Shown one piece after another: positions 36,789-64,000 of a DNA stretch of 64,000 nt (the stretch's first letter is position 1; each line of letters starts with the position of its first letter). Origin of the DNA: a virus (Duplodnaviria; Caudoviricetes); IMG/VR virus record IMGVR_UViG_3300028886_000028, positions 128,001-192,000 of that record. One strand, given 5' to 3'. The notes below the pieces were generated by a model, which worked only from the letters and a program-made list of their open reading frames with translations, had not been told where the DNA came from and searched no databases. The position numbers and the translations under genes were made by a program.

Positions 36789-37011
36789 CCTTGTATATTT
36801 ATTCAGAAGGGGAATTTATTACCAACAGGTATATAGTTCCCTAAATTAATATTACACTCACATTCACATATTAAGCCTAAGTAATTATACCGTCGTTGTT
36901 ACTGCAACGATGGTTCTTTATTTATAAAGATAGTTATTTATTTGTTTATTTCAACAATTAATGCTATTTTTACATTAAAAAGATATTTATTAATATAAAA
37001 TTTAGTGAAGT

Positions 37012-37191
37012 ATGTTTAAGTTAGTAAGTAATATAAAAAACTCTAAATGGTCATTCATGAATGGCTACAATATATTTAATATGGAAACTGTTTGGCTATC
37101 AAAGAAAGAAGATGCACGTAAGTATTCTTTATTAGATGAAAATGGCAACAAACTTGATGTTAATGTTGAAGATTTTTTAGTTGATGAATAA
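37012..37191 (+). CDS. Small hypothetical protein (59 aa, not in ORF track)
   Basis: ATG 21 nt after GATATTTAT; MFKLVSNIK...FLVDE; stop overlaps next start. Confidence 0.55.
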   Translation: MFKLVSNIKNSKWSFMNGYNIFNMETVWLSKKEDARKYSLLDENGNKLDVNVEDFLVDE

Positions 37192-37843
37192 TAAATTAGA
37201 ATCATATATGATAAATAAAATAACAGATAAAGGCTTTAAATTTTCAAGTATTGTAAATAATGTTTTGAAAGAGTCTTTATCCAGATTGGCGTATCATTTC
37301 ACGTCTTTAAAGAAATTTTATCAAATGGTAGATTCTGATTCAATTATATTTTCCACAGCTCATGGCACTGATGAGTTAATAAATGCTGATTATGGTAGGG
37401 GTGCTCCTTATTATTTGTCAACAACAAGAGTTCGTGATGGAAGATTTGGGTATTCTAGTGGATTAAATACAAGAATAGAATTGAATTCTGATTTCTTCAA
37501 TAGTAGGTTTCATTCAGGGCCCGTTAATTTCTTTGTGCCTGACGAAAGGGAAAGAAATTACCACAGTAAGCAAAATGTAGGAAAAGCAGAAAACGAAGAT
37601 AGAATTTTTTCAAATGTAAAGGTTTTAGAAGGTTTATCTAAATGCATTAATAGGGTAGATATATATTTGAATATACCTAATGAGGAACTGCCTTTATTCA
37701 AGCAAAGATATTATGATATATATTTGATGCTTCGTGACATATATAATACAGGTATAGGTCTTAAAACCTTTATTTATAACGATGAAAAAGAATTTAATAG
37801 ACAAGGAAAAAATATAACAGAAATAATATTAAAAATGTTGTAA
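37184..37843 (+). CDS. Hypothetical protein, possible ADP-ribosyltransferase-like fold
   Basis: AYHFTS, YLSTTR and ENEDR motifs in ART-like order. Confidence 0.35.
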   Translation: MNNKLESYMINKITDKGFKFSSIVNNVLKESLSRLAYHFTSLKKFYQMVDSDSIIFSTAHGTDELINADYGRGAPYYLSTTRVRDGRFGYSSGLNTRIELNSDFFNSRFHSGPVNFFVPDERERNYHSKQNVGKAENEDRIFSNVKVLEGLSKCINRVDIYLNIPNEELPLFKQRYYDIYLMLRDIYNTGIGLKTFIYNDEKEFNRQGKNITEIILKML

Positions 37844-37850
37844 AAATCAT

Positions 37851-39332
37851 ATGGGAAGTTATATAAAAATATTTAATACTCATGAAGAGTATCTTGAATG
37901 GGTAGAAACTTCATTGGTAGAGCCTAACATTTCATTTTGTAAAGATAAGCCTCGCCAAGTACATTATCATCCATTGTCTGGATGTACAGAAGGTGTTGTG
38001 TATAAAATTACAAGCACGCCATCTTACCCTTCTATAATTGAAAACGATGTGACATCATTTGATATTAGCTTTGATTATAGAAAGGCTGATATAGATGAAC
38101 ATTGCAGAGAAACAGATATTGTAAACAGCGCTGATACTGTAACAGTTAATTGTGGCGCAAATACAGGCTCAACAGATAGAGTTGTATCAGGAGTCGTAAC
38201 ATGGAATAGAAACGATATTGAATATAACGTTGTTCAAAAAGGAGTTTGTGTTGATTCCACTGTATATGAACTTGTAGGAAATCCATCTTATCCGGCAACT
38301 ATTCAATATGACGTAACATCATTTGATATTAATTTCAATTATAAGAAAACTGTAACAACAAGTGATTGTCAAAAAACTGTTACAAACAGTGCAGATACTG
38401 TAACTGTTAATTGCGGAGCGAATACAGGTTCATCAGATAGAACAGTGTCAGGTACTGTAACATGGAATGGCATAAACATTGAGTATAGTGTTACGCAGAA
38501 AAAAGGTTGTACTGTTTCAACTGTATATGAGCTTGTAGGAAATCCATCTTATCCAGCAACAATTGAATACGATACAACATCATTTGTTATTAACTTTAAT
38601 TACAAAAAAACTGATACAAATGAGTATTGCCAAGAAACTGTTACAAACAGTGCAGATACTGTAACTGTTAATTGTGGCGCGAATACAGGTTCGTCAGATA
38701 GAACAGTATCCGGTACCGTAACATGGAATGGAATTAATATTGAATATAACGTTACACAAAGTGGCTATTCTGACCCGTATGGAGGCTATGAGTATGTTGA
38801 CTTAGGTCTTCCTAGTGGATTAAAATGGGCTAAATATAATATTGGTGCTTCCAATGAAAGCGAAGTAGGAATGTATTTTTCATACGGAAATATAGTCGGG
38901 CATTATAATTGTGACGGGTATGATTTTTCATCCGCTAGTTACAGTACAACAAACGGTTATAGATTAAGCGGAAATATACCTCAAAATTCACAGTATGATG
39001 CGGCTATTGCTATTTGGGGTAATGGATGGAGAATGCCGACGCGAGACGAATTTCAAGAATTAATAAATAATACAACTTGTTCTTATGATTCAAATACATA
39101 TACATTCACTATAACAAGTAAAATAAATGGTAAATCAATTAAAATAAAAGCTTCAGGATATTGGGATAATACTTCTTGCCCTAGCCTTACGACAACATCA
39201 ATATATATCATGTCTTCCACATTATCAGGAAAATATGGAGTATCATTGAATGCCTCTTCTTATGGCGATTATAAAATGCACGTATATGGTAATAGATTTA
39301 CAGGCTTACCAATTCGTCCTGTACATAGTTAA
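37851..39332 (+). CDS. Leader-family modular protein: divergent leader + 3x 87-aa BACON-like repeats + CLec/DUF1566-like domain
   Basis: MGSYIKIFNTHEEY...LVEPNISFC...QVHYHP; YEYVDLGLPSGLKWA, WRMPT, GLPIRPV. Confidence 0.85.
   Translation: MGSYIKIFNTHEEYLEWVETSLVEPNISFCKDKPRQVHYHPLSGCTEGVVYKITSTPSYPSIIENDVTSFDISFDYRKADIDEHCRETDIVNSADTVTVNCGANTGSTDRVVSGVVTWNRNDIEYNVVQKGVCVDSTVYELVGNPSYPATIQYDVTSFDINFNYKKTVTTSDCQKTVTNSADTVTVNCGANTGSSDRTVSGTVTWNGINIEYSVTQKKGCTVSTVYELVGNPSYPATIEYDTTSFVINFNYKKTDTNEYCQETVTNSADTVTVNCGANTGSSDRTVSGTVTWNGINIEYNVTQSGYSDPYGGYEYVDLGLPSGLKWAKYNIGASNESEVGMYFSYGNIVGHYNCDGYDFSSASYSTTNGYRLSGNIPQNSQYDAAIAIWGNGWRMPTRDEFQELINNTTCSYDSNTYTFTITSKINGKSIKIKASGYWDNTSCPSLTTTSIYIMSSTLSGKYGVSLNASSYGDYKMHVYGNRFTGLPIRPVHS
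37981..38760 (+). repeat. Three tandem 261-bp coding repeats
   Basis: C...VYE.VG.PSYPATI...NSADTVTVNCGANTGS.DR.VSG.VTWN..IEY.V.Q x3; copies 2 and 3 near-identical in DNA. Confidence 0.9.
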
Positions 39333-39333
39333 T

Positions 39334-39365
39334 AAAAGAGCAATCTTTGTTGATTGCTCTTTTTC
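39334..39365. terminator. Bidirectional terminator between convergent genes
   Basis: AAAAGAGCAATC-TTTGTT-GATTGCTCTTTT. Confidence 0.75.
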
Positions 39366-39368
39366 ATT

Positions 39369-42318: not shown

Positions 42319-42440
42319 GTATATTATATATTATTAATATTATTAACCGGAATATATACCGGATTTTTTTAAAAAATATATAATTTTAAATATTTTTAAA
42401 CATTAATTTAAAAAAATTACTTTTTTACATATTTTTTTTG

Positions 42441-42448
42441 TATATTTG
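42441..42448 (+). promoter_or_regulatory. Bacteroidota -7 element
   Basis: TTTTTTTGTATATTTG 17 nt before ATG 42466. Confidence 0.65.
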
Positions 42449-46875: not shown

Positions 46876-46910
46876 GTAGGGAATTATATACCTGTTTACA
46901 ATAAACTATA

Positions 46911-46958
46911 GAATGCAGTCAGAAATGGCTGCATTTTTTGTTGCCTTAGATATTTATA
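46911..46958 (+). repeat. Cassette 5' element, copy 2
   Basis: Matches 31521-31570. Confidence 0.85.
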
Positions 46959-46990
46959 TAAAAAAATTAGATTTTAAAAAAGTAATAGCT

Positions 46991-48028
46991 ATGAAAAATT
47001 TTAAATTATTTAGTGCTCATACTGATTATGAGGCAGCTCAGAGCAGTTTAATACTACCAAATGTATCATTTTGTCTTGATACGCCAAATGAGGTACATTA
47101 TAATCCATTTGAGTGGTGTGAAGAAACTAGTATATATGAAGTAATAGGTAGTCCTTCATATCCATCTACAATAAATGGTGATATAACATCATTTGATATT
47201 GCAATTAGTTATAGAAGGACTGATACAAGTAGCTCTTGTACTGAAACTGTGACTGAAGGCACAGATACTGTTACCATTGAATGTGGTCAGAATCCAAGCA
47301 CAAGTGATACAAGGACTGTAAGTGGTACAGTTGATTATCATGGTAACGAGATTGAATATAGTGTTACTCAAAATAAGCTTAGTAATAATTCAGCAATTAC
47401 ATATTACGCAGAAAGTAAATTACTTGAGACAACTGATAGTAAATCAGATGGATTACGTACAAATGCGTTTAATGTATCAATTAAAAGCCATACATTCAGT
47501 AACGGTATAGGAACAATAACATTTAGTGGAACTTTAGGAACTATAGGTAGTTATGCTTTCCAAGGTTGTACTGGTCTTACAAGTATAGTTATACCAGATA
47601 GTGTAACAACTATTGGTTATGATGCTTTCAATAGATGTAGAAGCCTTACAAGTATAAATATACCTGATAGCGTTACAAGTATTGGTGACAATGCTTTCTA
47701 TAAATGTAGCGGCCTTACGAATATAGTTATACCTGATAGTGTTACAAGTATTGGTAGTAATGCTTTCGATAGTTGTTCTAATATGACAAGCTGTACAATA
47801 GGTAGTGGCGTAACAAGTATTAGTAATTATGCTTTCTATAATTGTAGTGGTCTTACAAGTATAACATGTAATGCAATGACAGCACCAACAGTAACATCAA
47901 ATTCATTTTACGGCGTCAAAAACGGTGGTACATTATATGTTCCTATAGGTAGCAGCGGTTATGACACTTGGATGGGAACAGGAAGTTATTACTTAGGAAG
48001 TATTAATTGGACTAAGGTAGAACAATAA
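46991..48028 (+). CDS. Leader-family modular protein: leader + BACON-like repeat + BspA-type LRRs
   Basis: Likely start MKNFKLFSAHTDY...EVHYNP at 46991; C-terminus GTLYVP.GS..YD.WMGTG.YYLG...WTKVEQ shared with 31592 gene. Confidence 0.88.
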   Translation: MKNFKLFSAHTDYEAAQSSLILPNVSFCLDTPNEVHYNPFEWCEETSIYEVIGSPSYPSTINGDITSFDIAISYRRTDTSSSCTETVTEGTDTVTIECGQNPSTSDTRTVSGTVDYHGNEIEYSVTQNKLSNNSAITYYAESKLLETTDSKSDGLRTNAFNVSIKSHTFSNGIGTITFSGTLGTIGSYAFQGCTGLTSIVIPDSVTTIGYDAFNRCRSLTSINIPDSVTSIGDNAFYKCSGLTNIVIPDSVTSIGSNAFDSCSNMTSCTIGSGVTSISNYAFYNCSGLTSITCNAMTAPTVTSNSFYGVKNGGTLYVPIGSSGYDTWMGTGSYYLGSINWTKVEQ

Positions 48029-48054
48029 TAAGCAATAAAAAGAAATAAATGTTT

Positions 48055-48080
48055 AACCCCTTTTTAAAAGGGGTTTTTTT
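48055..48080 (+). terminator. Intrinsic terminator
   Basis: AACCCCTTTT-T-AAAAGGGGTT palindrome plus T-run. Confidence 0.7.
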
Positions 48081-48114
48081 GTGTTTTAAAGATATTTATA
48101 TAAAAATATTGTAT

Positions 48115-48330
48115 ATGAATGAAAACGAGAAGAAATTACAACAAATAATAAGTGAGGAACTTAGTAAATCTGATGTCAATTCTATGATTAGTAATAAGTT
48201 AAATTCTGCTTTATCTTCTCGTGAATTTAAACAGAAGGTTAAAGAATTAAGTTCTGAGGTTGTAAGTGAATTATTTAAAATATTATGGCAGAGAAATAAT
48301 TTCTGGAAATCAAGTGTATCAAGAGCATAA
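48115..48330 (+). CDS. Small hypothetical protein
   Basis: ATG 48115 after GATATTTATA; KKLQQIISEEL. Confidence 0.55.
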   Translation: MNENEKKLQQIISEELSKSDVNSMISNKLNSALSSREFKQKVKELSSEVVSELFKILWQRNNFWKSSVSRA

Positions 48331-49157
48331 TGAAAATATATATAAATGAAAATAAATTGGTTCTTATAAAAGAAAGTGAGGATGAAAACGTTACATTTTT
48401 CAAATTTTTCACTGAGGTTAAGAATTTTATAAAGGATTTGCTTGATGACCCAATAGGCGCTAAACCAAGTGATTTTTTTGAAAAACATGGTATAAGCAAG
48501 AAAAGCCTTTTGAATAAAATGATGGATAAAGACATCATTACTAAAAAAGAAAATATTGATGAGCCTAATGATGCAGATGGAAAAATGAAGTCGAGGCATT
48601 ATTTACAATACAAAGTGCCAAGAAAAAATTTTGAGCAAAAAATAAAAAGGCTTTATAGTTACTATTTTGAAAACGAAAAGAGAAAAGAAAAAATAGACGA
48701 ATCCTTTGATAATATAGTAAGGCCTCAAAAATATGATTCTGTTGCAGTATATATATTTTGCAAAGATAATAAAGGTATTACATATGTATTAGGAGGAAAA
48801 AGGAGAGGAAGCAATAATGGAGGGTTATATAATGTTCCAACAGGGCAAGTTGGAGATAAAATATTCGATGAAACAGTAGAAGATGCTGCTGTAAGAGAAG
48901 TAAGAGAAGAAAGTGGATTATTTATTGACAAATCGTTATTAAACGATATTGGCGATGAAGAATATTCTAGCCGTTATGGAATTTGCCTTGGTAAGAATTA
49001 TATGGTAGTTTTAAATGGTACTATAGATAATAATAAACCTTCAAAAGGTGATGGTGAAAATGAACCATTCCAGTGGATTCCAATAGAAGCAGTTGGTTGC
49101 ATTGGATGGGCATTTGGGCAAGATAAAAATATATATAATATAATAAATTCATTATGA
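48330..49157 (+). CDS. Two-domain protein with C-terminal NUDIX hydrolase
   Basis: PTGQV...ETVEDAAVREVREESGL Nudix box; N-terminus MKIYINENKLVLIKES. Confidence 0.75.
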   Translation: MKIYINENKLVLIKESEDENVTFFKFFTEVKNFIKDLLDDPIGAKPSDFFEKHGISKKSLLNKMMDKDIITKKENIDEPNDADGKMKSRHYLQYKVPRKNFEQKIKRLYSYYFENEKRKEKIDESFDNIVRPQKYDSVAVYIFCKDNKGITYVLGGKRRGSNNGGLYNVPTGQVGDKIFDETVEDAAVREVREESGLFIDKSLLNDIGDEEYSSRYGICLGKNYMVVLNGTIDNNKPSKGDGENEPFQWIPIEAVGCIGWAFGQDKNIYNIINSL

Positions 49158-49807
49158 AGCAAATAATTAGATTAACAGAATCAGATTTACATAACATTAT
49201 AAAAAAATCTGTAAACAAAATATTAAAAGAAGCACATGGTGAGCCTGATGAATCTACTGCTTTGATTTATGACGGTATAATAGAAGATTACAAGGCTCAA
49301 GAAATTGCTGATGAACAAGGCATTTCAGAGGAAGAGGCTGCTGCTGAATGGTTTAAGGATGTTGCAGAGGATGGTAATTTCGAGGAAAACAGTATGCCAA
49401 TTCATAGAAAATATGTAATGGATATACCTGAAGCAGGCGCAGAAATGTATTATGATTATGGTGCAGGCTATTATTTTCTCGTTAAGCAAGAACGTATAGA
49501 TATGCCTGGTTTTGAAGGTACTTGGGATGCATTGGATAGTTTAACAAATCCATTTAACGAAAGTGTATTGAGAGAGGAAAATGGTGGTGGAGCTCCAAAT
49601 TGCGCAAGTGTAATGCAAACTGGTAGTGGTAAATCTCCATTGGGAACTAATCCTGAAGCCGGGCAATATACGGTAGCTTTTGGCGCTGATAAAGATACTT
49701 CTGATAGGCATGGAGGTTTTTCAGTTGATGGAAAAGCAAAATGGAATTCAAATCCCGGAAATGTTCAAAGAAGGCAAATTTATAATCCAAAAAGTGGAAA
49801 GAAATAA
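49154..49807 (+). CDS. Putative internal head protein (LTESDLHNIIKKSV motif)
   Basis: N-terminal motif shared with 40773 and 59897 genes. Confidence 0.5.
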   Translation: MKQIIRLTESDLHNIIKKSVNKILKEAHGEPDESTALIYDGIIEDYKAQEIADEQGISEEEAAAEWFKDVAEDGNFEENSMPIHRKYVMDIPEAGAEMYYDYGAGYYFLVKQERIDMPGFEGTWDALDSLTNPFNESVLREENGGGAPNCASVMQTGSGKSPLGTNPEAGQYTVAFGADKDTSDRHGGFSVDGKAKWNSNPGNVQRRQIYNPKSGKK

Positions 49808-49980
49808 TGATAGATTATTATAATGAAAAGGGTTATTTTGACGAAAAAAAAGTCATAAATGCTGTGAAGGAAATAGATGAAAAATTGAAAACTGAAACTG
49901 ATAAAGGAAAAAGAACACAGTTAATGTTTGAACAAATGCTTCGCGGGTTGTATTTAACTCAAGTACAAGAATATTTATAA
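49807..49980 (+). CDS. Small hypothetical protein (57 aa, not in ORF track)
   Basis: TAATG coupling; fills the gap exactly. Confidence 0.55.
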   Translation: MIDYYNEKGYFDEKKVINAVKEIDEKLKTETDKGKRTQLMFEQMLRGLYLTQVQEYL

Positions 49981-49982
49981 TT

Positions 49983-50237: not shown

Positions 50238-50263
50238 TTATTTTATATAAAAACAAATCATAT

Positions 50264-51094
50264 ATGAATAGAACGTATAATGTAGGCGAATTGAGAGCAA
50301 TTATCAAGGAAAGAGTAGAGGCAAAAAACGAGTTTGAACCAGTTTTTGGAGAAAATGTACCAAAGGATAATAAAAAAATCAACGACCAGGCCTATAATGA
50401 CATTAAGAAAGAGACTGAAGCGTATGATGGAGGTTTGGGAGCAAAGAATAAAAAGGGAAATGCTGTCACACCTGCTAATAACAGAGGTATGTCTGACCTT
50501 GATTATGATTCAATTTCAAAGCCGTTTAAGGACAGGGTAAAAGCTCAGATTAAAGGTTATCCTTCAGCAGAGAATGAAAAACTTCATAAAGAGGATAAAG
50601 AATTTGGTAATGCTTACTATGATTCAAATGAATTAAGTAAAGATATTGCCGACCATGCTAAAGAAGCCAAAAAAGAAAAAGATAAGAGTAAAACAGATGG
50701 TTTGGTTAGCAGCAAATATAAAGATGAGACAAAAAATAACAGTGACACCATGTTTGAATCAAAGAAAATTAGCAAAATCCAATTTAAGCACACTCAGTTC
50801 CTTTCAGAAGGCCACATGCTTTCAAAAGTGCCTGACGAATTTAAGGTAGAAGGAAAAAGATTTATCATGAAAGATACTGCTGATAATGAGTATCTTGTAG
50901 AATGGACTAATAAACAGCCTAATGTTACGAAAAAGTTAAATAAAACGCTTGTAAACGAAGAAATGAATAGAATTAAAGCTCTTTATGGCTATAAGAGCAA
51001 AGACTATTTCACAACAACTAATTCACAATCAAGAATGAATGAGAATAAAGAGTTTTCTGATATGATTAATAAGGCTAGAAAGTTAATGAAATAA
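50264..51094 (+). CDS. Hypothetical charged protein, possible head/scaffold component
   Basis: LVNEEMNRIKALYGY and multiple x-x-E-S/N sites. Confidence 0.45.
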   Translation: MNRTYNVGELRAIIKERVEAKNEFEPVFGENVPKDNKKINDQAYNDIKKETEAYDGGLGAKNKKGNAVTPANNRGMSDLDYDSISKPFKDRVKAQIKGYPSAENEKLHKEDKEFGNAYYDSNELSKDIADHAKEAKKEKDKSKTDGLVSSKYKDETKNNSDTMFESKKISKIQFKHTQFLSEGHMLSKVPDEFKVEGKRFIMKDTADNEYLVEWTNKQPNVTKKLNKTLVNEEMNRIKALYGYKSKDYFTTTNSQSRMNENKEFSDMINKARKLMK

Positions 51095-51126
51095 TAAACC
51101 CTTATAAAAGTATTTGAAAATTAAAA

Positions 51127-51930
51127 ATGAAAAAGAATAGTGAAATAGGAGGCAATAACATTATAAATGTTAATGTGCCGGCTTCAGATGGTGGTGCAGG
51201 AAAAAAAGGAGTTAATAAATACATAACAGCCTTTAAAGATACATTTGATTTTTTAGCAAGTGCATCTTTTGTATCTGTGGTTAAAGTTATTAGTATATTA
51301 ATTGTTTCTTCATTTATTGTAATATCAAGCGTGATGTGCTATAAAGCAGTCACAAGTGAGGCATTTATTGACGCTTTAGCTAAAAAAGTTACAGAAAAAC
51401 AAGATAAAGAAGAAGTTAAAAATCTTGATTTAAGAGACGATAAAGTTACTCCAAAAATTCAAAAGGAAATAGAAATTCTATGTTATACATTAAGTTCGGA
51501 TAGGGTTTTTATATTTGAAATGCATAACGGTAAAAAGAATTCTAGTGGCTTACCTTTTAGATATGCTGATATGTCATATGAAGAAGTAAATGATGCTAAA
51601 CATGTCGAAAGAATTGCTATGAAGTATCAAAACGTCCCATTGACATTATATAAATTCCCACATTATGTTGCGGAACATGGATATATGTTTGGAACAGTAC
51701 AAGACGTAGCAAAAGTTGATGTTGGTTTTGCAGATGAAATAAAGGATAGTGGAGGAAACTATATTGCTATTATATATATCACATCAAATGGTACGCCTTT
51801 GGGCTTTCTAGGTGTTGCTTTCCATGAAAGGCCATCATTTTCTGATGAATATATAAAAGGAATAATTGAAAGTCATTCAAGAGTTATTACGCCGCTTCTT
51901 GATTTAAGAATGCAAATTTATTGGTCTTAA
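51127..51930 (+). CDS. Putative T4 T-like holin (single TM + GAF-like domain)
   Basis: TM VISILIVSSFIVISSVMC followed by SDRVFIFEMHNG...PLGFLGVAF. Confidence 0.55.
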   Translation: MKKNSEIGGNNIINVNVPASDGGAGKKGVNKYITAFKDTFDFLASASFVSVVKVISILIVSSFIVISSVMCYKAVTSEAFIDALAKKVTEKQDKEEVKNLDLRDDKVTPKIQKEIEILCYTLSSDRVFIFEMHNGKKNSSGLPFRYADMSYEEVNDAKHVERIAMKYQNVPLTLYKFPHYVAEHGYMFGTVQDVAKVDVGFADEIKDSGGNYIAIIYITSNGTPLGFLGVAFHERPSFSDEYIKGIIESHSRVITPLLDLRMQIYWS

Positions 51931-51942
51931 AATATTAGTATT

Positions 51943-52623
51943 ATGATTACAAAAAAATGCATTATCGTTGTGTTGTCTTTATTGCTTTTATTAGCCGGGT
52001 TAATTTGTTTTACTCATTATAAAATGATTGAAACAAATAGGAAGATTGACGAAATTGAATTTAAAGATAGTACAAACACTTATAATAAGATTTATTATGA
52101 AACTAGTATCAAAGAATTAAAAAAGAAAAATAAACAACTTTACGATTCTTTAGCCGCTAGTAAAGATAAAATAGACTATCTCATTCAGTTTACTTCAAAA
52201 CAAGAATATAATACAGGCAAAGTAATAGTTAAAAAAGAGAAAGTACATGATACAATTTATGTTGATAGCATCAAATTTGCGAATGATAAAACATTTGAAT
52301 ACACAAATGTGAATCCAAATGATACTATGAATTATAAATTGCAAATTAACGCAAAAGAAGAACCAAATTGGTATTCCCTTAAAATTAACACAAGTACAAA
52401 ATACACAATTGTAAATAAAGAAGGGGAAAATGGGCAAAACCATATTACAATTGGAGAAGATACGCATTCTGCTGACATAACAGATGTAACAGTATTTAAA
52501 AAGGATAAAAAAACAGTTTGGAAAAGATTTTCAATCGGCCCTAGCGTTACAGGAGGATATGATTTAATAAATAAACAATTTGGCGTAATGGCGGGAGTAT
52601 CAATAACATATAATTTGAAATAA
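51943..52623 (+). CDS. Membrane-anchored protein, possible spanin
   Basis: N-terminal TM, coiled coil, VHDTIYVDS, C-terminal beta strands KRFSIGPSVTGGY...GVSITYNL. Confidence 0.5.
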   Translation: MITKKCIIVVLSLLLLLAGLICFTHYKMIETNRKIDEIEFKDSTNTYNKIYYETSIKELKKKNKQLYDSLAASKDKIDYLIQFTSKQEYNTGKVIVKKEKVHDTIYVDSIKFANDKTFEYTNVNPNDTMNYKLQINAKEEPNWYSLKINTSTKYTIVNKEGENGQNHITIGEDTHSADITDVTVFKKDKKTVWKRFSIGPSVTGGYDLINKQFGVMAGVSITYNLK

Positions 52624-52635
52624 TAAACAATAAGT

Positions 52636-53373
52636 ATGAAATATTTAAAATTATTTAATGACCATGCTGAATATGAAGTTGCTAAGAATGGTTTAATACT
52701 ACCTAATGTATCAAATTGTGTTAATACACAAAATGAAGTGCATTATAATCCTTATGACCCATATGCAGGCCATGAGTATGTTGAGATTGGCGGCTTGAAA
52801 TGGGCAACAATGAACATTGGTGCTTCGCAGCCAAGTGATTATGGTTTGTATTTCCAATGGGGTGACACACAAGGCTACACTGCTGAACAAGTAGGTAGTG
52901 GTGAAGGACAGAAATACTTTGGTTGGGAAGACTATAAATACGGTAATGGTACAAGTTCGCCAGGTGCTACAGGAATGACCAAGTATAACTCTACTGATGG
53001 CTTAACAACACTTGAGGCTGTTGATGATGCTGCTGTTGCTAATTGGGGTGGCAGTTGGCGTATGCCAACAACTGATGAATTCCAAGCTCTTGGTGCTGCC
53101 GTAAACACTGCATGGACTCAAGTTAACAACGTGTATGGTATGTTATGTACAGATAAGGAAGATAGTTCCAAGACATTATTCTTCCCTGCTGCTGGCAGCT
53201 GTCTCAATGGCAGTGTCAGATTCGTAGGCAATGACGGTGGCTATTGGTCTAGTTCTCTTGACACTGATGGTGGGCAGGACGCCTACGACTTGGACTTTTT
53301 CAGTAGCTATGCTGACTGGGGTAGCAGCGGCAGCCGCTGCTGCGGCTTCGCAGTTCGTCCTGTGGTTGGTTGA
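52636..53373 (+). CDS. Leader-family protein: leader + CLec/DUF1566-like domain, candidate DGR target
   Basis: MKYLKLFNDHAEY...EVHYNP; HEYVEIGGLKWATMNIGA, WRMPT, YWSSS, GFAVRPV; NNC-rich 3' end. Confidence 0.88.
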   Translation: MKYLKLFNDHAEYEVAKNGLILPNVSNCVNTQNEVHYNPYDPYAGHEYVEIGGLKWATMNIGASQPSDYGLYFQWGDTQGYTAEQVGSGEGQKYFGWEDYKYGNGTSSPGATGMTKYNSTDGLTTLEAVDDAAVANWGGSWRMPTTDEFQALGAAVNTAWTQVNNVYGMLCTDKEDSSKTLFFPAAGSCLNGSVRFVGNDGGYWSSSLDTDGGQDAYDLDFFSSYADWGSSGSRCCGFAVRPVVG

Positions 53374-53501
53374 GAATTCATCATCACCAATAAACCAAAA
53401 TAAACTTGATTGCCACAAGCGTCAGCCCAAGGCAATCAAGTTTTCTATTTATGCCACCTTGTTATGCATATACTAATGCCAACAGATATATAGTTTCCAA
53501 A
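53371..53501 (+). repeat. Cassette 3' element type B (~130 bp with 13-bp hairpin), copy 1
   Basis: Reverse complement of 62840-62970 with 5 mismatches; stem AAACTTGATTGCC/GGCAATCAAGTTT. Confidence 0.95.
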
Positions 53502-55506: not shown

Positions 55507-56189
55507 GGTCTTAATGAGTTTCTACGAATTTTTAAATCTGACCAGTTGGTCAGATTTTTTATTTTTTGAAACCAAGTTTTTCTAAGTTTGCTATGAAAAG
55601 CGTCTCCTGAAAAGAAAACATATTTAAGTTTATTTTTTTCGCATTCTCTTTCTAATTCATTAAATAGTCTTATGCAATCTGATTCATTTTTACACATAAC
55701 CATGTTAAGTGAATTTGTTGTAGAAATTAAAAGTTTATTTTGGTAAATTAATATTTGTTTGAAATTATATTTATTTGATTCATTTGATATTAAGTTACCA
55801 TATATCCATTCAAAATTTTTTCTTTGAAAAACTGGATGAAAGCCATATACCCAAAAAGTCTCTTCTTTATCATAGTTTTCCCTGTCATATATTATCCAAT
55901 TTTCATTATTTGTTTTATAATTAATTATTTTACCGTTCTCGTCTTTTAATTTGGTACTTTCAGTATTATCATCATTTCTTTTAATAATATACAATTCATA
56001 ATTTGCATTTATTAATTTTCCAACATTGATATATCTAACCGGAAATTTTATTTTTTTATTTTCTGAAATTAATTCTTCAAACTTTTTATTAACCAATTTT
56101 TCCGATGCGCAGTTATACAATGTTTTAATCATTTTTCCATTGCTTACTAATATAATATGATATATATTTTTTTTGGGTATTTTTTGCAT
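55503..56189 (-). CDS. Hypothetical protein
   Basis: 228-aa ORF, divergent from 56294. Confidence 0.55.
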   Translation of the reverse strand: MQKIPKKNIYHIILVSNGKMIKTLYNCASEKLVNKKFEELISENKKIKFPVRYINVGKLINANYELYIIKRNDDNTESTKLKDENGKIINYKTNNENWIIYDRENYDKEETFWVYGFHPVFQRKNFEWIYGNLISNESNKYNFKQILIYQNKLLISTTNSLNMVMCKNESDCIRLFNELERECEKNKLKYVFFSGDAFHSKLRKTWFQKIKNLTNWSDLKIRRNSLRP

Positions 56190-56228
56190 ATTTTAATTAA
56201 ATTATTTCTTTTTTTTAATATTTTTTTG

Positions 56229-56236
56229 TATATTTG
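56229..56236 (+). promoter_or_regulatory. Bacteroidota -7 element
   Basis: TTTTTTTGTATATTTG upstream of the 56294 operon. Confidence 0.6.
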
Positions 56237-58327: not shown

Positions 58328-59140
58328 ATGATTGATATAAATAAAATATATTGCGGCGATGCTGTAAAAATTCTTGAAAATATTGATAACGATAGTGTTG
58401 ACCTTGTTGTAACATCGCCGCCATATAGTAATCTTAGGAATTACGGTAACACTTTAATTGATTGGAATCATGATAAATTCAAAGAAATAGCCAATGAATT
58501 AAATAGGGTTTTAAAGCCGGGAGGGGTTATTGTATGGGTTGTTGGTGATAAAACAGAAAATGGCTCTGAAACTTGTATTCCTTTTAAGCAAACATTGTAT
58601 TTCAGAGATATAGGACTAAACCTTAACGATACGATGATATTCTTTAAAAGTAATCCTATGCCACAAGTTAAACAGCCAAGGTATAGAGATTGTTTTGAGT
58701 ATATGTTTGTTTTTTCTAAAGGGAAGCCAAGCACATTCAATCCTATCATGAGAAAATGTACTGAGAGTGGAAAACATTATAAATCAACTGTTAGAGTTAT
58801 AAACACAGATAATGATAGAAAAGATATTGATTATTTTGTAAGCGATGAAACAGTTGACTATAATGTATGGAGAATGTCCGTAGCGCAAAATAAAATTTTG
58901 TATGATTTAGGAGATAAAAAAATAAAACATCCGGCAGTATTTCCGTATGATATTCCGTTTAAACATATAAAAACCTGGACAAATGAAGGAGATTTAGTTT
59001 TAGACCCATTTATGGGAAGCGGAACCACAGCATTAGCAGCAATAAATTTGAAAAGGAATTATATAGGTATTGATGCTAATGAAGATTATTGTAAAATTGC
59101 TGACATTAGGATAAAAGCAAACGAAACATCTAAAAAATAA
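58328..59140 (+). CDS. DNA methyltransferase (N4-C/N6-A, beta class), paralog
   Basis: TSPPY, HPAVFP, VLDPFMGSGTT; start MIDINK at 58328. Confidence 0.92.
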   Translation: MIDINKIYCGDAVKILENIDNDSVDLVVTSPPYSNLRNYGNTLIDWNHDKFKEIANELNRVLKPGGVIVWVVGDKTENGSETCIPFKQTLYFRDIGLNLNDTMIFFKSNPMPQVKQPRYRDCFEYMFVFSKGKPSTFNPIMRKCTESGKHYKSTVRVINTDNDRKDIDYFVSDETVDYNVWRMSVAQNKILYDLGDKKIKHPAVFPYDIPFKHIKTWTNEGDLVLDPFMGSGTTALAAINLKRNYIGIDANEDYCKIADIRIKANETSKK

Positions 59141-59151
59141 AATTATAAGTA

Positions 59152-59826
59152 ATGGACAGTTTAATAAAAGATTTTAGAAAGTTCGCATTTGATAAAACAA
59201 ATGTAAGGCCATCAGCGTTAGATGCCAAAGTTAAATCAGTAGATAATATAATGCCATTTATTTTGGAAGAAAGAAAAATGAATGTCACCCAAATGGATGT
59301 TTTCAGTAGACTATTATTTGATAGAATTATTTATTTTTCCGGCGTGGTAGATGAAGATTCTTGTAATACAGTTATTGCACAATTGCTTTATTTATCATCT
59401 ACAGATAATAGGGATATAAACATATACATCAATAGTCCCGGTGGCTCAGTTGTAGATGGCCTTGGTGTAATTGACACTATTAATTTTGTTCCTTGTGACA
59501 TAACAACAACGTGTGTTGGAATGGCAGCATCAATGGGTGCAGTTTTGTTGAGTTGTGGCGCTAAAGGAAAAAGGCTTGTTTTGCCACATAGTAGAGTTAT
59601 GATTCATCAAGTATCTAGCAGCCAATCTGGTACTTTTTCAGACTTGGCAATTGAACTTGAACAAACTTTAAGATGCAAAAGGGATATATATAACATACTT
59701 GCTAAAAATACAGGCAAATCATATGAGCAGATAGAAAAAGATTGTGATAGAAACTTTTGGCTTATAGGTAAAGAAGCTGTAGATTATGGTATTGCTGATA
59801 AAGTTTTAAGTAAAGCTGAAAAATAA
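59152..59826 (+). CDS. clpP: ClpP protease subunit (Bacteroidales type)
   Basis: MDVFSRLLFDRII, YINSPGG, GMAASMG, SRVMIHQ. Confidence 0.93.
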   Translation: MDSLIKDFRKFAFDKTNVRPSALDAKVKSVDNIMPFILEERKMNVTQMDVFSRLLFDRIIYFSGVVDEDSCNTVIAQLLYLSSTDNRDINIYINSPGGSVVDGLGVIDTINFVPCDITTTCVGMAASMGAVLLSCGAKGKRLVLPHSRVMIHQVSSSQSGTFSDLAIELEQTLRCKRDIYNILAKNTGKSYEQIEKDCDRNFWLIGKEAVDYGIADKVLSKAEK

Positions 59827-59896
59827 AGGAGAATGAAACGTTTCTCCTTTATTTTTTAAACTAATATTATATTTATTAAAAAATAAAGTAGCAAAT

Positions 59897-60301
59897 ATGA
59901 TATTAAGGTTAATAGAATCTGATTTGCATAAGCTAATATCTTCTACAGTTAAGAAAATATTAAAGGAGAATTCAGAAAATAATGTAATATTAAGTAAAAT
60001 AGTTGAAGGCTTATCAATCTCTGGTATTCCATCAAAAATAGGGATGAATCAGGTAGACATCCCTCTTGATTACAATGGTAATGTTATCGCATGCATAGAT
60101 TATGAAATAGAAGAAAAACAAGGAGATTATAATGTGTTTATAACGTCTATTGTAATAGATGACGATGGTAAAGAATTCGAAATTGAAGATAATGGCATGG
60201 TTACGAATGCATTAAAAAATTTAATTGAACCGTGGACAGAAGATGTTGGATATTATGAAGAAGATGACGACCAATCTGGATGGAATGAAAATTGGAAATA
60301 A
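59897..60301 (+). CDS. Putative internal head protein (LIESDLHKLI motif)
   Basis: Shared N-terminal motif; ATATTTAT upstream. Confidence 0.5.
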   Translation: MILRLIESDLHKLISSTVKKILKENSENNVILSKIVEGLSISGIPSKIGMNQVDIPLDYNGNVIACIDYEIEEKQGDYNVFITSIVIDDDGKEFEIEDNGMVTNALKNLIEPWTEDVGYYEEDDDQSGWNENWK

Positions 60302-60333
60302 ATAATAATTATTATATAAAAACATTAAGAAAC

Positions 60334-60462
60334 ATGGCATGTGGATGTAAAAACAAGGCAGCAAATGCAAGTACAAATGTGGTAAAATCAGCCCCAACAC
60401 AGGAGTCTAAGCCTCAGAAGACTTCAAATGGAGCAAGAATAATCAAAAGAGAAATTAGATAA
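60334..60462 (+). CDS. Small basic protein MACGCK... (42 aa, not in ORF track)
   Basis: Fills intergenic gap, A-rich leader. Confidence 0.5.
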   Translation: MACGCKNKAANASTNVVKSAPTQESKPQKTSNGARIIKREIR

Positions 60463-60464
60463 TT

Positions 60465-60821
60465 ATGATTGACGCACCAAAAACAACATTATTAAATAAT
60501 ATAGATGACTTGGATTTAGTATTTCTTGAAGGGGAAAACGATTTAGAGTTTGAAATAGATGATTATTCATTTGTTGTAACATATTCCCTAGAAGAAGATG
60601 ATTTTTTCACTGAAGATGATGAGGAAATCAAAGGAGGAAAAAAACTGAAAATTTTATCAATAAACGCATATGATAATGTAGAGAATGAAGACATAAACGT
60701 TAACGTTGATGACGAAATGCAAAAATTATTCTCAGATTATTATAAAAATATGTTAAATGATGAAGGATATGAGCCATTAAATGTTAATTTTGGTGAATTT
60801 TCTGATTTTATGGATGAATAA
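60465..60821 (+). CDS. Highly acidic hypothetical protein
   Basis: Asp/Glu-rich, 118 aa. Confidence 0.55.
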   Translation: MIDAPKTTLLNNIDDLDLVFLEGENDLEFEIDDYSFVVTYSLEEDDFFTEDDEEIKGGKKLKILSINAYDNVENEDINVNVDDEMQKLFSDYYKNMLNDEGYEPLNVNFGEFSDFMDE

Positions 60822-60845
60822 TTTCTTTTTTTGATATTTTTTTTG

Positions 60846-60853
60846 TATCTTTG
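60846..60853 (+). promoter_or_regulatory. Bacteroidota -7 element driving tRNA cluster
   Basis: TTTTTTGTATCTTTG (TAnnTTTG). Confidence 0.7.
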
Positions 60854-60910
60854 CTAAAAGAAATTAATGGGGCAGAGCGTTACCTAAGAGACAACAGCCC
60901 CATTAAATTT

Positions 60911-60992
60911 GGCAGAATGGCGGAATTGGCAGACGCGCATCACTCAAAATGATGTATCTCATGGTGTAAGGGTTCAAGTCCCTTTTCTGCTA
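60911..60992 (+). tRNA. tRNA-Leu(CAA)
   Basis: Cloverleaf: GGCAGAA/TTCTGCT, D arm GGCGGAATTGGCAGACGC, CATCA-CTCAAAA-TGATG, long V arm, GGTTCAAGTCC. Confidence 0.9.
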
Positions 60993-61039
60993 CAATTATA
61001 AAAGTAGTCCAACCTTGGCAAAGGTTAAAATATAAAACA

Positions 61040-61180
61040 AGGAAAGTAACAGCAAGCATTTGTAATACGCGATGGCTCCGCTGACTAATATGGTCGTTTA
61101 GGTTCGAATCCTAACATATGAGGATAACTCGTAGTGTGGTGGAATTGGTAGACACGGCGGAATAATTAAAATTCTTTCCT
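61040..61180 (+). ncRNA. Circularly permuted tRNA-like RNA in an ACAGCAA stem (Y-RNA/YrlA-like architecture)
   Basis: Order is V arm, T arm (TTAGG-TTCGAAT-CCTAA), loop-closed acceptor stem, D arm (TGGTGGAATTGGTAGACAC). Closed by TCCGC/GCGGA and by outer AGGAAAG/CTTTCCT. Confidence 0.7.
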
Positions 61181-61188
61181 AAATAGAT

Positions 61189-61276
61189 GCTCTTGTGGTG
61201 GAATTGATAGACACCCCAGAATTAGAATCTGGTGCGAAATAATAGTAGCGTGTGGGTTTGAGTCCCTCCAGGAGCA
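61189..61276 (+). tRNA. tRNA-Leu(TAG), slightly atypical
   Basis: GCTCTTG/CAGGAGC, CCAGA-ATTAGAA-TCTGG, long V arm; T loop TTTGAGT and one T-stem mismatch. Confidence 0.75.
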
Positions 61277-61304
61277 CTTTTTTGAAATAAATAATATTTA
61301 TATT

Positions 61305-61457
61305 ATGAGTCCTTGTTGGCATTGCCCTTATTTCAATAAAATGGGAAAAAGGTATTTTTGCTCATTGAAGGGTATCTATTTAACAGAAAATGGTGTAGAT
61401 TTTTGCTCTGGGCCGAGTTACAAATATAAAAAGAAACATAAAAATAGAAAAAAATGA
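61305..61457 (+). CDS. Small Cys-rich basic protein (50 aa, not in ORF track)
   Basis: MSPCWHCPYF...FC...FC...KKKHKNRKK; four Cys. Confidence 0.45.
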   Translation: MSPCWHCPYFNKMGKRYFCSLKGIYLTENGVDFCSGPSYKYKKKHKNRKK

Positions 61458-61617
61458 AGAATATAACACGACAACAACAGCAACAAAGTTAAGTCGTATC
61501 AACCATATGGGAACGGTTGATACTGATATTGTATTAACCAATCCTATTTATATTATAATTATTTTTTACCTTAAGTTCCCATTAGTAACAATACTGATGG
61601 GATTTTTTGTTTTATAA

Positions 61618-61689
61618 TGGAGAGTGGTATAACGGCCATTACACGAGATTTTGGTCCTCGGAATCCGGGTTCGATTCCCGGCTCTCCAA
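61618..61689 (+). tRNA. tRNA-Gln(TTG)
   Basis: TGGAGAG/CTCTCCA with U1-A72, anticodon loop TT-TTG-GT, CCGGG-TTCGATT-CCCGG. Confidence 0.88.
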
Positions 61690-61696
61690 CAAAAAA

Positions 61697-61783
61697 TGGG
61701 AGTTGGCCGAGTGGTTTAAGGCGTGTGCCTCTGGAACACATGTAGACATAAATCTACCGTAGGTTCGAATCCTACATTCCCAA
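61697..61783 (+). tRNA. Long-variable-arm tRNA with CTG (Gln) anticodon
   Basis: TGGGAGT/ATTCCCA acceptor, D arm GGCCGAGTGGTTTAAGGC, loop CT-CTG-GA, V arm GTAGA-CATAAA-TCTAC, GTAGG-TTCGAAT-CCTAC. Confidence 0.75.
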
Positions 61784-61853
61784 CTTTGAAAAAATGTTTT
61801 TTAACGTTAGTATATATTTATTCAAAATAAGAAATTAATTTTGAATAAAGAAA

Positions 61854-62045
61854 ATGGAATATTTTGTAGATACAGAAAGAATTAGTTTGGATTATTCATA
61901 TGATAGAATATTTAAAGAAATACCAAAATATAGATTAACATTATATGATAAATATGGGCATTTTGATGCTGACGTTTATTTAACAGATGAACAAATTGAA
62001 GATTTGCTCACGGGACTTGAAAAAATAAAAAATAACATTAAATGA
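61854..62045 (+). CDS. Hypothetical protein
   Basis: 63 aa after ATATTTAT. Confidence 0.5.
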   Translation: MEYFVDTERISLDYSYDRIFKEIPKYRLTLYDKYGHFDADVYLTDEQIEDLLTGLEKIKNNIK

Positions 62046-62046
62046 T

Positions 62047-62295
62047 ATGGGTACATTATTTAATTTTGCAATGCATGTTATTTTATGGCCTATTGTTTTG
62101 TTTCTGGTCTTTACAGCGACTACGAATATTGATTTAATTTTTTATGCTATAAAGAAAGTATTAATTAAAATAAAAGAATATTATGAATTTATTAGAAAAC
62201 GTATTTGTAAAAAAAGCAATAAAGTCGATGATGACGGCGGAGCAATTCGAGACTATGCAGAATTTTATGACAGCAGTTCAGTCTGGGAAGATTGA
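62047..62295 (+). CDS. Small membrane protein
   Basis: N-terminal hydrophobic segment; overlaps next ORF. Confidence 0.4.
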   Translation: MGTLFNFAMHVILWPIVLFLVFTATTNIDLIFYAIKKVLIKIKEYYEFIRKRICKKSNKVDDDGGAIRDYAEFYDSSSVWED

Positions 62296-62392
62296 CCAAA
62301 ACAAACTTAAAAATGTTGGTGAAAAATTATCTAAAATATCGCCGGAAGAAGTGAATAATCTTTTGGACATAATAGACAAAAACTTGAAGTAG
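62183..62392 (+). CDS. Hypothetical helical protein
   Basis: Protein-like composition; ends at a hairpin. Confidence 0.5.
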   Translation: MNLLENVFVKKAIKSMMTAEQFETMQNFMTAVQSGKIDQNKLKNVGEKLSKISPEEVNNLLDIIDKNLK

Positions 62393-62438
62393 TAATTCAA
62401 CTACTCAAGTTTTTCTTTTTTTATAAAAACATTTTTAA

Positions 62439-62825
62439 ATGGTACATGTTATTAATATAAAAACTGATGATAAGACAATGGATGAAGGATATTTCTACGT
62501 AGGCCGTAGCAAATATAATAATTCTCCACTTGGAAACCCCTTTACATGTAAAGGAAAGCGAACAAGTTTAGCAAAACTATCATTTCCAACAGTTGAACAA
62601 GCAATAGAAGCCTACGAAATGTATTTTGATGCCATGTACGGTAAAGATGAAGATTTCACGAAGGCTTTTGATGAAATATACGAATATTATAAAACTGGAA
62701 AAGATGTATATCTTGGATGTTTTTGTGCACCGGGTAAATGCCATGCATCTATCATTGCTAAAAAATTGCAACAGAAATTAATAAAGGAAAAAATGGAAGA
62801 AAGAAAAAAGGAGAAGCTCAAATAA
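62439..62825 (+). CDS. DUF4326-like protein
   Basis: YVGR...SPLGNPF, LGCFCAPGKCHASII. Confidence 0.75.
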   Translation: MVHVINIKTDDKTMDEGYFYVGRSKYNNSPLGNPFTCKGKRTSLAKLSFPTVEQAIEAYEMYFDAMYGKDEDFTKAFDEIYEYYKTGKDVYLGCFCAPGKCHASIIAKKLQQKLIKEKMEERKKEKLK

Positions 62826-62839
62826 GCCTCTCCTTTTTA

Positions 62840-62970
62840 TTTGGGAACTATATATCTGTTGGCATTAGTATATGCATAATAAGGTAGTATAAATAGAAAA
62901 CTTGATTGCCTTGGGCTGACGCTTGTGGCAATCAAGTTTATTTTGGTTTATTGGCGATGATGAATTCTCA
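62840..62970 (-). repeat. Cassette 3' element type B, copy 2
   Basis: Reverse complement matches 53371-53501. Confidence 0.95.
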
Positions 62971-63627
62971 ACCTACCACAGGGCGAACCGAGAAGCCGTA
63001 GTAACGGTAGTCCTTGAACACGCCCTTGGCACCATTGAGAAAGAAGAAGCTGTAAGCGTTACCACTACCATTAGGAGAAGAACCCCAATAGTAACCGCTA
63101 TTGCCTACATCGCTCTGGCTACCATTGTACCAGCGGCCAACAGCAGGAAGAAATAAAACAGCCCCATTGGTGGCTGTGAATGTACCACCATTTATTCCAC
63201 TACCTTTGTAGTTTGTTACCCACTGATAAGTAGTATTAGCTGTCAATTCTTGCATTTGTACACTCGTTGGCATATGCCAAGAGCCACCCCACACTTGCAC
63301 TGCTGTATCTACAGAAGAATCTAATGGGTATTCTGTTCCACTATAGTTGCTATCGCCACTTGTTGCTGCATATTGAGCAGCGCCCTTACCGTATTGATAG
63401 TAATTACCATAATCCGTTTCTGATGAAGCACCCACGTTCATTGTAGCCCAAAGTGTACCACTTGGTAGACCAAGGTCAACATACTCATGGCCTGCATATG
63501 GGTCAACATAAGGATTATAATGCACTTCATTAGGCGTATCATTACATGTTGATACATTTGGTAGTATCAAATTACTCTGTGCTGATTCGTAATCAGTATG
63601 AGCATTAAATTTTTTTAAGTATTTCAT
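62968..63627 (-). CDS. Leader-family protein: leader + CLec/DUF1566-like domain, candidate DGR target
   Basis: MKYLKKFNAHTDY...EVHYNP; HEYVDLGLPSGTLWATMNVGA, WHMPT, YYWGSS, GFSVRPV; NNC-rich 3' end. Confidence 0.88.
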   Translation of the reverse strand: MKYLKKFNAHTDYESAQSNLILPNVSTCNDTPNEVHYNPYVDPYAGHEYVDLGLPSGTLWATMNVGASSETDYGNYYQYGKGAAQYAATSGDSNYSGTEYPLDSSVDTAVQVWGGSWHMPTSVQMQELTANTTYQWVTNYKGSGINGGTFTATNGAVLFLPAVGRWYNGSQSDVGNSGYYWGSSPNGSGNAYSFFFLNGAKGVFKDYRYYGFSVRPVVG

Positions 63628-63718
63628 AATTCTATTTTGTTTTTACTATAAATATCAGTTATATGTATAAATGAGCAATCCTTTGGTTGATTTTCTCATT
63701 ATTATAAACTAATAGATA

Positions 63719-64000
63719 TTACCAATAGGTATATAATTCCGTTTTGTTTTGCTTAAAGTAAAATGGATTATCTTTTAATGATTCTATAATATCCATTTTT
63801 TCATCACAGATGCTTTTAAAAGCCTCTGTATCGTTTTCAAACAACTCAAACCATTCTCCTATAATGTTGGATGAATTAAAGTGATTATGAAGCATCTTTT
63901 CAAGTTTGAAAGGATGGCTTGTTTCATAAAAGTCTTTTATATATAATTCATAAGAACTTCCAGTTTGAAGCTGTTTCAATCTTTTATTAATATCTTTCGA
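63719..64000 (-). CDS. GIY-YIG superfamily T5orf172/MUG113-like protein (5'-truncated by window)
   Basis: KRLKQLQTGS, LEKMLHNHF, GEWFEL; frame open to window end. Confidence 0.8.
   Translation of the reverse strand, partial: SKDINKRLKQLQTGSSYELYIKDFYETSHPFKLEKMLHNHFNSSNIIGEWFELFENDTEAFKSICDEKMDIIESLKDNPFYFKQNKTELYTYW

Follow-up and report, generated by a model that had tools for sequence, protein, structure and literature searches.

Insertion sequences (ISs) of the IS1595 family are marked by 8-bp target duplications and by a transposase that combines a zinc ribbon with a DDE domain, the zinc ribbon being present in all subgroups except IS1016 (PMC8101967). For one member, ISEc69, an AT-rich 8-bp duplication has been shown experimentally (PMC7835479). 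Passenger-carrying 'transporter ISs' (tISs; Siguier, Gagnevin & Chandler 2009, as cited in PMC3129680 and PMC8101967) are recognized derivatives, as are mobile insertion cassettes (MICs) as well as solo repeats (PMC3129680). Among the MICs is MIC231 of Bacillus cereus (De Palmenaer et al. 2004, as cited in PMC3129680 and PMC3281130); MICs and MITEs (miniature inverted-repeat transposable elements) are non-autonomous, carry the repeats of a cognate IS around passenger DNA, lack a transposase, and are presumed to be mobilized in trans. Here, we describe a relative of these systems in a stretch of 64,000 nucleotides (the window) that forms positions 128001 to 192000 of a single 401,138-bp contig with 31% G+C, labeled as a complete virus record (IMG/VR IMGVR_UViG_3300028886_000028). 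A short motif recurs in this window beside genes of an adhesin family. We find that it is very probably the ~21-bp terminal inverted repeat (TIR) of a passenger-carrying tIS of the IS1595 family, represented in this genome by transposase-less cassettes and decayed remnants. The type of element is already known; its cargo of adhesin genes and its phage setting are the new parts. In the literature searched, we found no description of IS1595 elements as carriers of phage adhesin genes.

The repeat and its transposase

Five sites in the window match GGGAAYTATATAYCTRTTGG with no more than three mismatches: 36822-36841 (minus strand), 46879-46898 (plus), 53479-53498 (minus), 62843-62862 (plus), and 63722-63741 (minus). 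Shuffled windows gave a mean of 0.04 matches and never five. These are exactly the five copies that a reading of the DNA letters alone (the sequence-only reading) had placed near genes sharing a leader; a 'weaker' copy that it listed at 42349 falls below our weight-matrix threshold. The genome-wide matrix scan that it had proposed was made with a matrix built solely from the ends of elements in other genomes. That matrix returned the same eight sites that we count as good copies in the whole genome (genome positions 164822, 181479, 191722, 310012, and 327538 on the minus strand; 174879, 190843, and 325565 on the plus strand), scoring 14 to 39 bits against a maximum of 12.7 bits in shuffled genomes.

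All eight copies are confined to two regions, both rich in adhesin-family genes. Thirteen genes with the N-terminal leader 'M.KYLK.F..H.DYE.A.SSLILPNVS.C...P.EVHYNP' were found in the whole genome by tblastn, and seven of the eight copies are close to five of them, ~135 bp or less from a start or stop. Read from GGGAA to TTGG, seven copies point the TTGG side to the adhesin gene and the GGGAA side toward unrelated neighbors, as the sequence-only reading had described. Cassettes resemble one another up to the outer G of GGGAA and no further. In both clusters, the copies strictly alternate in orientation (-,+,-,+,- and -,+,-), and two adhesin genes, both on the minus strand, are fully bracketed (window 62968-63627 and genome 325695-327431). 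The inverted orientation of the copies follows from their being the two ends of a transposon.

No IS1595-family transposase was found in the 401-kb genome by tblastn with a sister-phage transposase. The sister phages (~410 kb) were located through a DUF4326 neighbor, at ~60% protein identity, and each contains one copy of the motif. In one of them (G003), the motif lies just 3' of a 74%-identical homologue of the adhesin that starts at 52636. In another (G002), an open reading frame (ORF) of 340 to 355 amino acids is located between the adhesin terminator hairpin and the motif. This ORF is an IS1595 transposase: it matches Pfam DDE_Tnp_IS1595 (PF12762) at 3e-43 and has a zinc ribbon (Zn_ribbon_IS1595, PF12760; 2.2e-9, 37.6 bits with a cut-off of 25.4). 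Furthermore, the NCBIfam IS1595 transposase model NF033547 (cut-off 75) scores 201.8 and 200.3 bits on the transposases of G002 and of L017, a full element. When the G002 transposase was used as query, matches came from assemblies of rumen Bacteroidales (Prevotella, Prevotellaceae, and others), with 53 loci, and from IMG/VR phage contigs, with 19; relatives of up to 93% identity were present in rumen Prevotellaceae genomes and sister phages.

At 30 of these loci, the motif occurs as an inverted pair around the transposase and one to four further ORFs, forming elements of 1.6 to 4.2 kb; cargo ORFs are present in all 30. The boundaries of the units in relatives therefore coincide with the motif, the pattern on which the sequence-only reading had staked its view. 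Within each element, the transposase-side repeat (IRL) and the cargo-side repeat (IRR) are identical at 21 to 25 of the first 25 nt, and the 60 ends give a 21-nt consensus, GGGAAC(T/G)ATATAC(C/T)TGTTG(G/A/T)C. The ends of the ISNwi1 subgroup, which we take to read 'ggnnatTAT', presumably resemble this repeat end. The complete elements sit at different insertion sites, each with its own flanking 8-bp duplication, which is perfect in 25 of the 30 and matches at seven of eight positions in three more; all are AT-rich.

Cargo with the adhesin leader, bearing a leucine-rich repeat payload of the BspA type or a lectin-like one, is found in 7 of the 30 elements, in each case converging with the transposase. 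Proteins beginning '..IRLTESDLHRIVKESV..' are carried by at least five. One element (L018) has a bacterial chromosome context, between a DcuA/DcuB transporter gene (dcuB) and a phosphoglucomutase gene (pgm), with flanks of 52% G+C; another (L023), also in chromosomal context, adjoins a rhamnosidase gene. Other complete elements are in phage contigs with flanks of 32 to 38% G+C. In G002 itself, the cargo-side repeat (L014:5757-5897 / L071:5280-5340) is cut to its inner 7 nt, TCAACAA, with the transposase kept, and a 97%-related element (L070) is intact with a perfect duplication. With its repeat truncated in this way, the G002 element is, judging from its ends, no longer excisable as a unit, and can be read as a snapshot of a transposon-borne adhesin gene becoming fixed.

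The sister elements thus resemble tISs in having DDE_Tnp_IS1595 and zinc ribbon domains, a single transposase gene, short TIRs starting with GG, and AT-rich 8-bp duplications, and all 30 hold genes unrelated to transposition inside one repeat pair. They differ in three ways. The copies in the present genome have no transposase; the cargo is of phage type, comprising leader-sharing adhesin-like proteins, to which sister elements add the 'RLTESDLH..' proteins; and the elements reside in jumbo-phage genomes besides Prevotella chromosomes.

Cassettes and scars left by transposase deletion

The window contains one complete transposase-less cassette of MIC-like form (62843-63741, minus strand; 899 bp), delimited by end-to-end alignment with L017 and with L092, a cassette from another phage. 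Against the full 2,118-bp L017 element, it aligns except for a gap of ~1.2 kb that corresponds to the transposase. Starting from the IRL, its further parts are the transposase scar, a hairpin, the adhesin gene (minus strand), a promoter-like motif, and the IRR. The IRL, GGGAACTATATATCTGTTGG (62843-62862, plus strand), scores 32.5 bits, and the degenerate IRR, CGGAATTATATACCTATTGG (63722-63741, minus), agrees with it at 16 of 20 positions, which bears out the imperfect inverted pair around one gene noted earlier. The cassette is flanked by a target-site duplication, TTTTATTT on the left (62835-62842) and TTTTGTTT on the right (63742-63749), with seven of eight positions matching. Next to the IRL is a scar that we call type B (62863-62892, plus), in which the deleted transposase gene survives as its last ~10 codons and stop, as identified by alignment to the 3' end of the L017 transposase and by motif scan. 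A G+C-rich hairpin (62898-62939), nearly identical in L092, presumably terminates transcription from both sides, where the adhesin gene converges on the former transposase gene.

The passenger gene (62968-63627, minus) encodes a 219-amino acid adhesin-family protein with the N-terminal leader 'MKYLKKFNAHTDYESAQSNLILPNVS..EVHYNP' and a lectin-like payload; its homologue in L017 has a weak Fib_succ_major match. Upstream of this gene, and inside the cassette, is the promoter-like GATATTTATA (63647-63656, minus). Within the 80 nt upstream, 44 genes have ATATTTATA in sense and 18 in antisense orientation, mostly 20 to 40 nt before the ATG. Because of this sense-strand enrichment, it is probably a phage promoter element carried inside the transposon.

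The right-hand repeat also reshapes a neighboring gene. A T5orf172/MUG113 (GIY-YIG-like) gene at 63719-64000 (minus), which continues to window position 64066, takes its ELYTYW codons and stop from the IRR, as the sequence-only reading had observed. Its product now ends ...FKQNKTELYTYW within the repeat; the L010 homologue lacks a tail of this kind and ends ...NPFY. On this comparison, the cassette appears to have landed in the 3' end of the gene. Since its repeats match at only 16 of 20 positions, the cassette itself is probably a fossil that is no longer mobile.

Gene ends of this kind were also seen elsewhere. In an unrelated T4-like phage fragment (L001:4977-5633, minus), a 218-amino acid membrane protein ends ...RELYTCWQ* in a solo copy of the repeat; read in the ELYTYW*/RELYTCWQ* frame, the repeat stops a gene within seven to eight codons. 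In phage G001, an HNH/NUMOD-like homing-endonuclease ORF (MEIWKDIKGYEGLYQVSNEGRIKSL..; L015:5128-5724) lies directly outside the repeat. Selfish nuclease genes seemingly cluster at repeat junctions, HNH/NUMOD-like in G001 and GIY-YIG-like at the 63722 repeat.

The other copies in the window are one-ended. Downstream of an adhesin-family gene at 35432-36703 (plus; 423 amino acids, with leader, Ig-like repeats, and a lectin-like C terminus, matching PHROG Ig-domain structural proteins), an IRL (36822-36841, minus; 32.5 bits) marks a transposase-deleted element. It adjoins a type A scar (36748-36821, minus), composed of the last ~14 transposase codons (36748-36790) and 31 nt of the 5' leader of the element (36791-36821), as shown by L017 alignments. 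A cargo-side TIR of the IRR type, GGGAATTATATACCTGTTTA (46879-46898, plus), recovered by motif search and weight matrix, is followed by a hairpin (46913-46934), GATATTTATA (46949-46958), and an adhesin-family gene (46991-48028, plus; 345 amino acids, with leader and 23-amino acid leucine-rich repeats). The same order of repeat, hairpin, GATATTTATA, and adhesin start is found at the IRR of the full elements L017 and L070. The gene at 52636-53373 (plus; 245 amino acids, with leader and a lectin-like domain that weakly matches Lcl_C), whose G003 homologue was described above, is followed by a type B scar (53449-53478) and an IRL (53479-53498), both on the minus strand.

Each scar type occurs twice. 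In type A (window 36748-36841 and genome 325565-325645), 31 nt of leader separate the repeat from the last ~14 codons, stop included; in type B (window 53449-53498 and 62843-62892), the repeat is joined directly to the last ~10 codons. The type A remnant reads KVYFHWYDHNHKVA, where the G002 transposase ends KVYYEWYTRNSVA. Because the last 10 to 14 codons and stop persist beside each IRL, the DNA between adhesin terminator and repeat can be recognized as a transposase leftover. A further transposase 3'-end scar, without a TIR, lies downstream of the adhesin gene 31592-32929 (32979-33021, minus; outside the reported range), in a region with 96% identity to 36735-36791. Outside the window, the cassette at genome 325565-327557 has near-perfect ends, and a solo end is present at 310012. 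IMG/VR contains no relative of the protein encoded at genome 327590.

A scan of IMG/VR with the consensus ends found 54 stretches. The window's own degenerate exact pattern found one foreign contig only, since position 7 is G or position 20 is A/T in most ends. Among the 54 stretches, 4 repeat pairs enclose a transposase and 16 do not; 13 of these 16 have perfect 8-bp duplications, and their sizes run from a MITE-like 165 bp to cassettes of 2.8 kb. L092 is a 1,028-bp lectin-type adhesin cassette with a perfect duplication (ATAAAATA), homologous over its whole length to window 62843-63741, hairpin and transposase scar included. That duplication indicates that transposase-less forms of this cassette do insert into phage DNA.

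Both the window cassette and the one at genome 325565-327557 therefore show the likeness to MICs set out above, as do sister cassettes with perfect duplications. They differ in that the cognate transposase is absent from this phage genome and, from MIC231, in deriving from IS1595 rather than IS4/IS231 and in residing in a phage. The internal scars show that the cassettes originated when a cargo-carrying IS lost its transposase by deletion.

Other cargo was seen among these elements. Three cassettes of other rumen phage contigs (L099:9438-11553, L117:10572-12129, and L132:11438-12810) hold a TnpB/OrfB-like ORF (MLKAYKYKIKPN..) and no IS1595 transposase between IS1595-type repeats, two with perfect 8-bp duplications; one transposon family apparently carries the nuclease of another. 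Small proteins starting '..(I/V)RLTESDLH.IVKES(V/I)..' are encoded by cargo ORFs of L019, L030, L032, L035, L036, L098, L101, L114, and L141. The same transposon family thus moves cargo with either kind of leader, adhesin or RLTESDLH.

From these comparisons, a full element consists of an IRL, a leader of ~200 nt, the DDE transposase, a two-way hairpin, at least one cargo gene, and an IRR, the cargo often being an adhesin gene that converges on the transposase, with a promoter of its own and a hairpin for insulation. It inserts into AT-rich DNA and duplicates 8 bp. In this phage, every copy has lost the transposase by deletion, leaving the two complete cassettes (62843-63741 and genome 325565-327557), four one-ended remnants adjacent to adhesin genes, a solo end, and a scar that lacks a repeat. 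We propose that the copies would have arrived by transposition, further movement would need a transposase acting in trans from a Prevotella host or a co-infecting phage, and the cargo proteins would be virion adhesins.

Alternative explanations

Several observations weigh against transposition as the origin of the present copies. The IRR at 63722 is degenerate, at 14.3 bits; the cassette at genome 325565-327557 has no target duplication, and that of the only other complete cassette is imperfect (seven of eight). For four adhesin genes, the repeat is present on one side only. With such one-sided repeats, transposition into the present sites is not demonstrable for these copies, and recombination with the genes may have spread them. 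Relatives offer no clean empty site, and those found through the DUF4326 neighbor differ in downstream gene content. Last, no excision or new insertion was seen among the joints listed in the strain data, which are assembled Logan contigs of four runs.

In the strongest alternative, the motif is a transposon end but all copies are fossils, spread by duplication or homologous recombination of adhesin genes together with their flanks after a single ancestral insertion or none, with no transposition within the genome. Four of the five TIR-associated adhesin genes are one-ended, each scar type recurs with an identical deletion junction, which fits copying after deletion, one complete cassette is without a duplication, and the adhesin leaders, at 75 to 93% DNA identity, are prone to recombination. 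However, the cassette at 62843-63741 combines a duplication matching at seven of eight positions with an insertion-type fusion to the neighboring gene, and transposase-less cassettes of the same architecture have perfect target duplications at unrelated sites in other phages. Deleted forms therefore appear to transpose and to carry their junction along. We consider this alternative unlikely.

Strain comparison bears on the age of the copies. In run X3, from another study, window positions 52625 and 53590, here 964 nt apart, are linked by 390 nt in a 10-kb contig, so the 52636 adhesin with its scar and repeat is replaced or absent in that sister strain. A second X3 contig is continuous over 58996-63522, and the 62843 insertion is therefore common to both strains. 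Given the degenerate repeats and at least one insertion shared with a sister strain of another study, we take the adhesin cassettes to be old insertions. An X3 contig also has ~1,050 extra nt between window 54414 and 54420, which are strain-specific.

The PeSL 'mobile regulatory cassettes' of T4-type phages, reportedly described by Arbiol and colleagues in 2010, are said to be repeated hairpin-plus-promoter modules at gene boundaries in variable regions that act by homologous recombination, with no transposase or target duplication. The cassettes here likewise carry a hairpin and a promoter-like motif. They differ in that the repeated motif is a transposon end outside the hairpin-promoter module.

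The motifs could also be crossover sites of a site-specific inversion system that flips adhesin genes or blocks for host range. In the R64 shufflon with Rci, and in Mu Gin, P1 Cin, and Salmonella Hin, a tyrosine or serine recombinase swaps C-terminal gene segments under a fixed promoter. The locus shares with these systems short inverted repeats of alternating orientation beside variable adhesin or fiber genes; the alternation is strict in both clusters, and the two bracketed genes lie on the minus strand amid runs of plus-strand genes. Yet tyrosine (PF00589) and serine (PF00239) recombinases gave no match in the 401-kb genome, even at E<=1, with profiles that as positive controls matched in 14 of 14 and 13 of 14 genomes, respectively. 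In complete elements elsewhere, a DDE transposase invariably lies between the repeats, with flanking 8-bp duplications of a kind that inversion sites do not produce. Because each bracketed unit is a complete gene that brings its own promoter, flipping it would have no switching effect. We regard an inversion system as very improbable. The joints listed, a minority of the total in assembled contigs and mostly short-sided repeat artefacts, include no strand switch at a motif and speak neither for nor against inversion or excision. The sequence-only reading had proposed TIRs or recombinase sites of a non-autonomous cassette system, served by an enzyme from outside the window. The TIR half of that proposal is upheld; the inversion half, with its tyrosine or serine recombinase, gives way to a DDE transposase, found between the same repeats in related phages and Prevotella genomes. 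Nor does the 6.6-kb block 46879-53498, which it had treated as a unit, behave as one: there is no target duplication, and the sister strain differs only in the right-hand adhesin cassette.

That the motif is an operator or promoter element co-regulating the adhesin genes is equally far-fetched: it lies 95 to 113 nt upstream of three adhesin start codons and is kept beside an adhesin gene in phages whose neighboring proteins are only ~60% identical, but it is also downstream of four adhesin genes in opposite orientation, is inverted relative to the hairpin-promoter module at 310012, flanks unrelated cargo in other genomes, as between dcuB and pgm in a Prevotella chromosome, and is missing from 8 of the 13 adhesin-family genes.

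We discarded four further candidates. As a promoter, the motif fits the direction of downstream genes in neither orientation. The small ORF MPPYDCGHTNGSTPCIFIQKGNLLPTGI*, which ends in the 36822 copy, is the antisense of the transposase scar, and its start codon and frame are not conserved in other copies. A long-range RNA stem between upstream and downstream copies (an RNase III site) does not suit an upstream copy that lies outside the hairpin-promoter unit of the gene, and most genes have a single copy. The lectin-like C termini and G+C-rich hairpin had also prompted us to consider a diversity-generating retroelement; no template repeat exists, and the hairpin proves to be the terminator conserved between the adhesin and transposase genes.

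Neighboring features and significance

Other repeats and genes lie in the same stretch. Two adhesin genes contain 69-bp arrays (23 amino acids, leucine-rich repeat type) at 32095-32877 and 47401-47907, and the gene 37851-39332 contains 261-bp repeats at 38110-38760; payloads built of repeat arrays may expand or contract by unit number. An AT-rich intergenic module ending TTTTTTTGTAT(A/C)TTTG is located at 42373-42448, 56161-56236, and 60778-60853, and in inverted orientation at 33860-33922. It resembles the Bacteroidota TAnnTTTG -7 element, and these modules are probably host-type, perhaps early, promoters that hint at a Bacteroidota host. Four tRNA genes (Leu-CAA, Leu-TAG, Gln-TTG, and Gln-CTG) occupy 60911-61784.

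Lytic phage genomes are generally considered to contain few insertion sequences, and homologous recombination is the usual explanation for the exchange of receptor-binding genes. Reading the motif as the TIR of an IS1595-family tIS fully explains it in this genome. A defined transposon family, with a known class of enzyme and a recognizable 21-bp end, carries adhesin-type genes and occurs both in Prevotella chromosomes and in rumen phages of 90 to 410 kb. The repeat together with the 8-bp duplication is a simple sequence tag for such cargo in metagenomes.

More tentatively, this IS1595 lineage may be a dedicated shuttle of virion-addressed cargo, bearing either the adhesin 'anchor' or the 'RLTESDLH' capsid-type leader, between Prevotella chromosomes and rumen jumbo phages. 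Prevotella would then be both reservoir and source of transposase; after insertion, the transposase and repeats would decay and the adhesin gene would become fixed. Much of the 13-member adhesin repertoire, and hence the host-binding range, would possibly have been assembled by transposition and not by duplication alone. Genes for cell binding appear to travel between jumbo phages and the Prevotella hosts of these phages on a transposon of a known kind, which provides a concrete and testable route for the transfer of host-binding modules.

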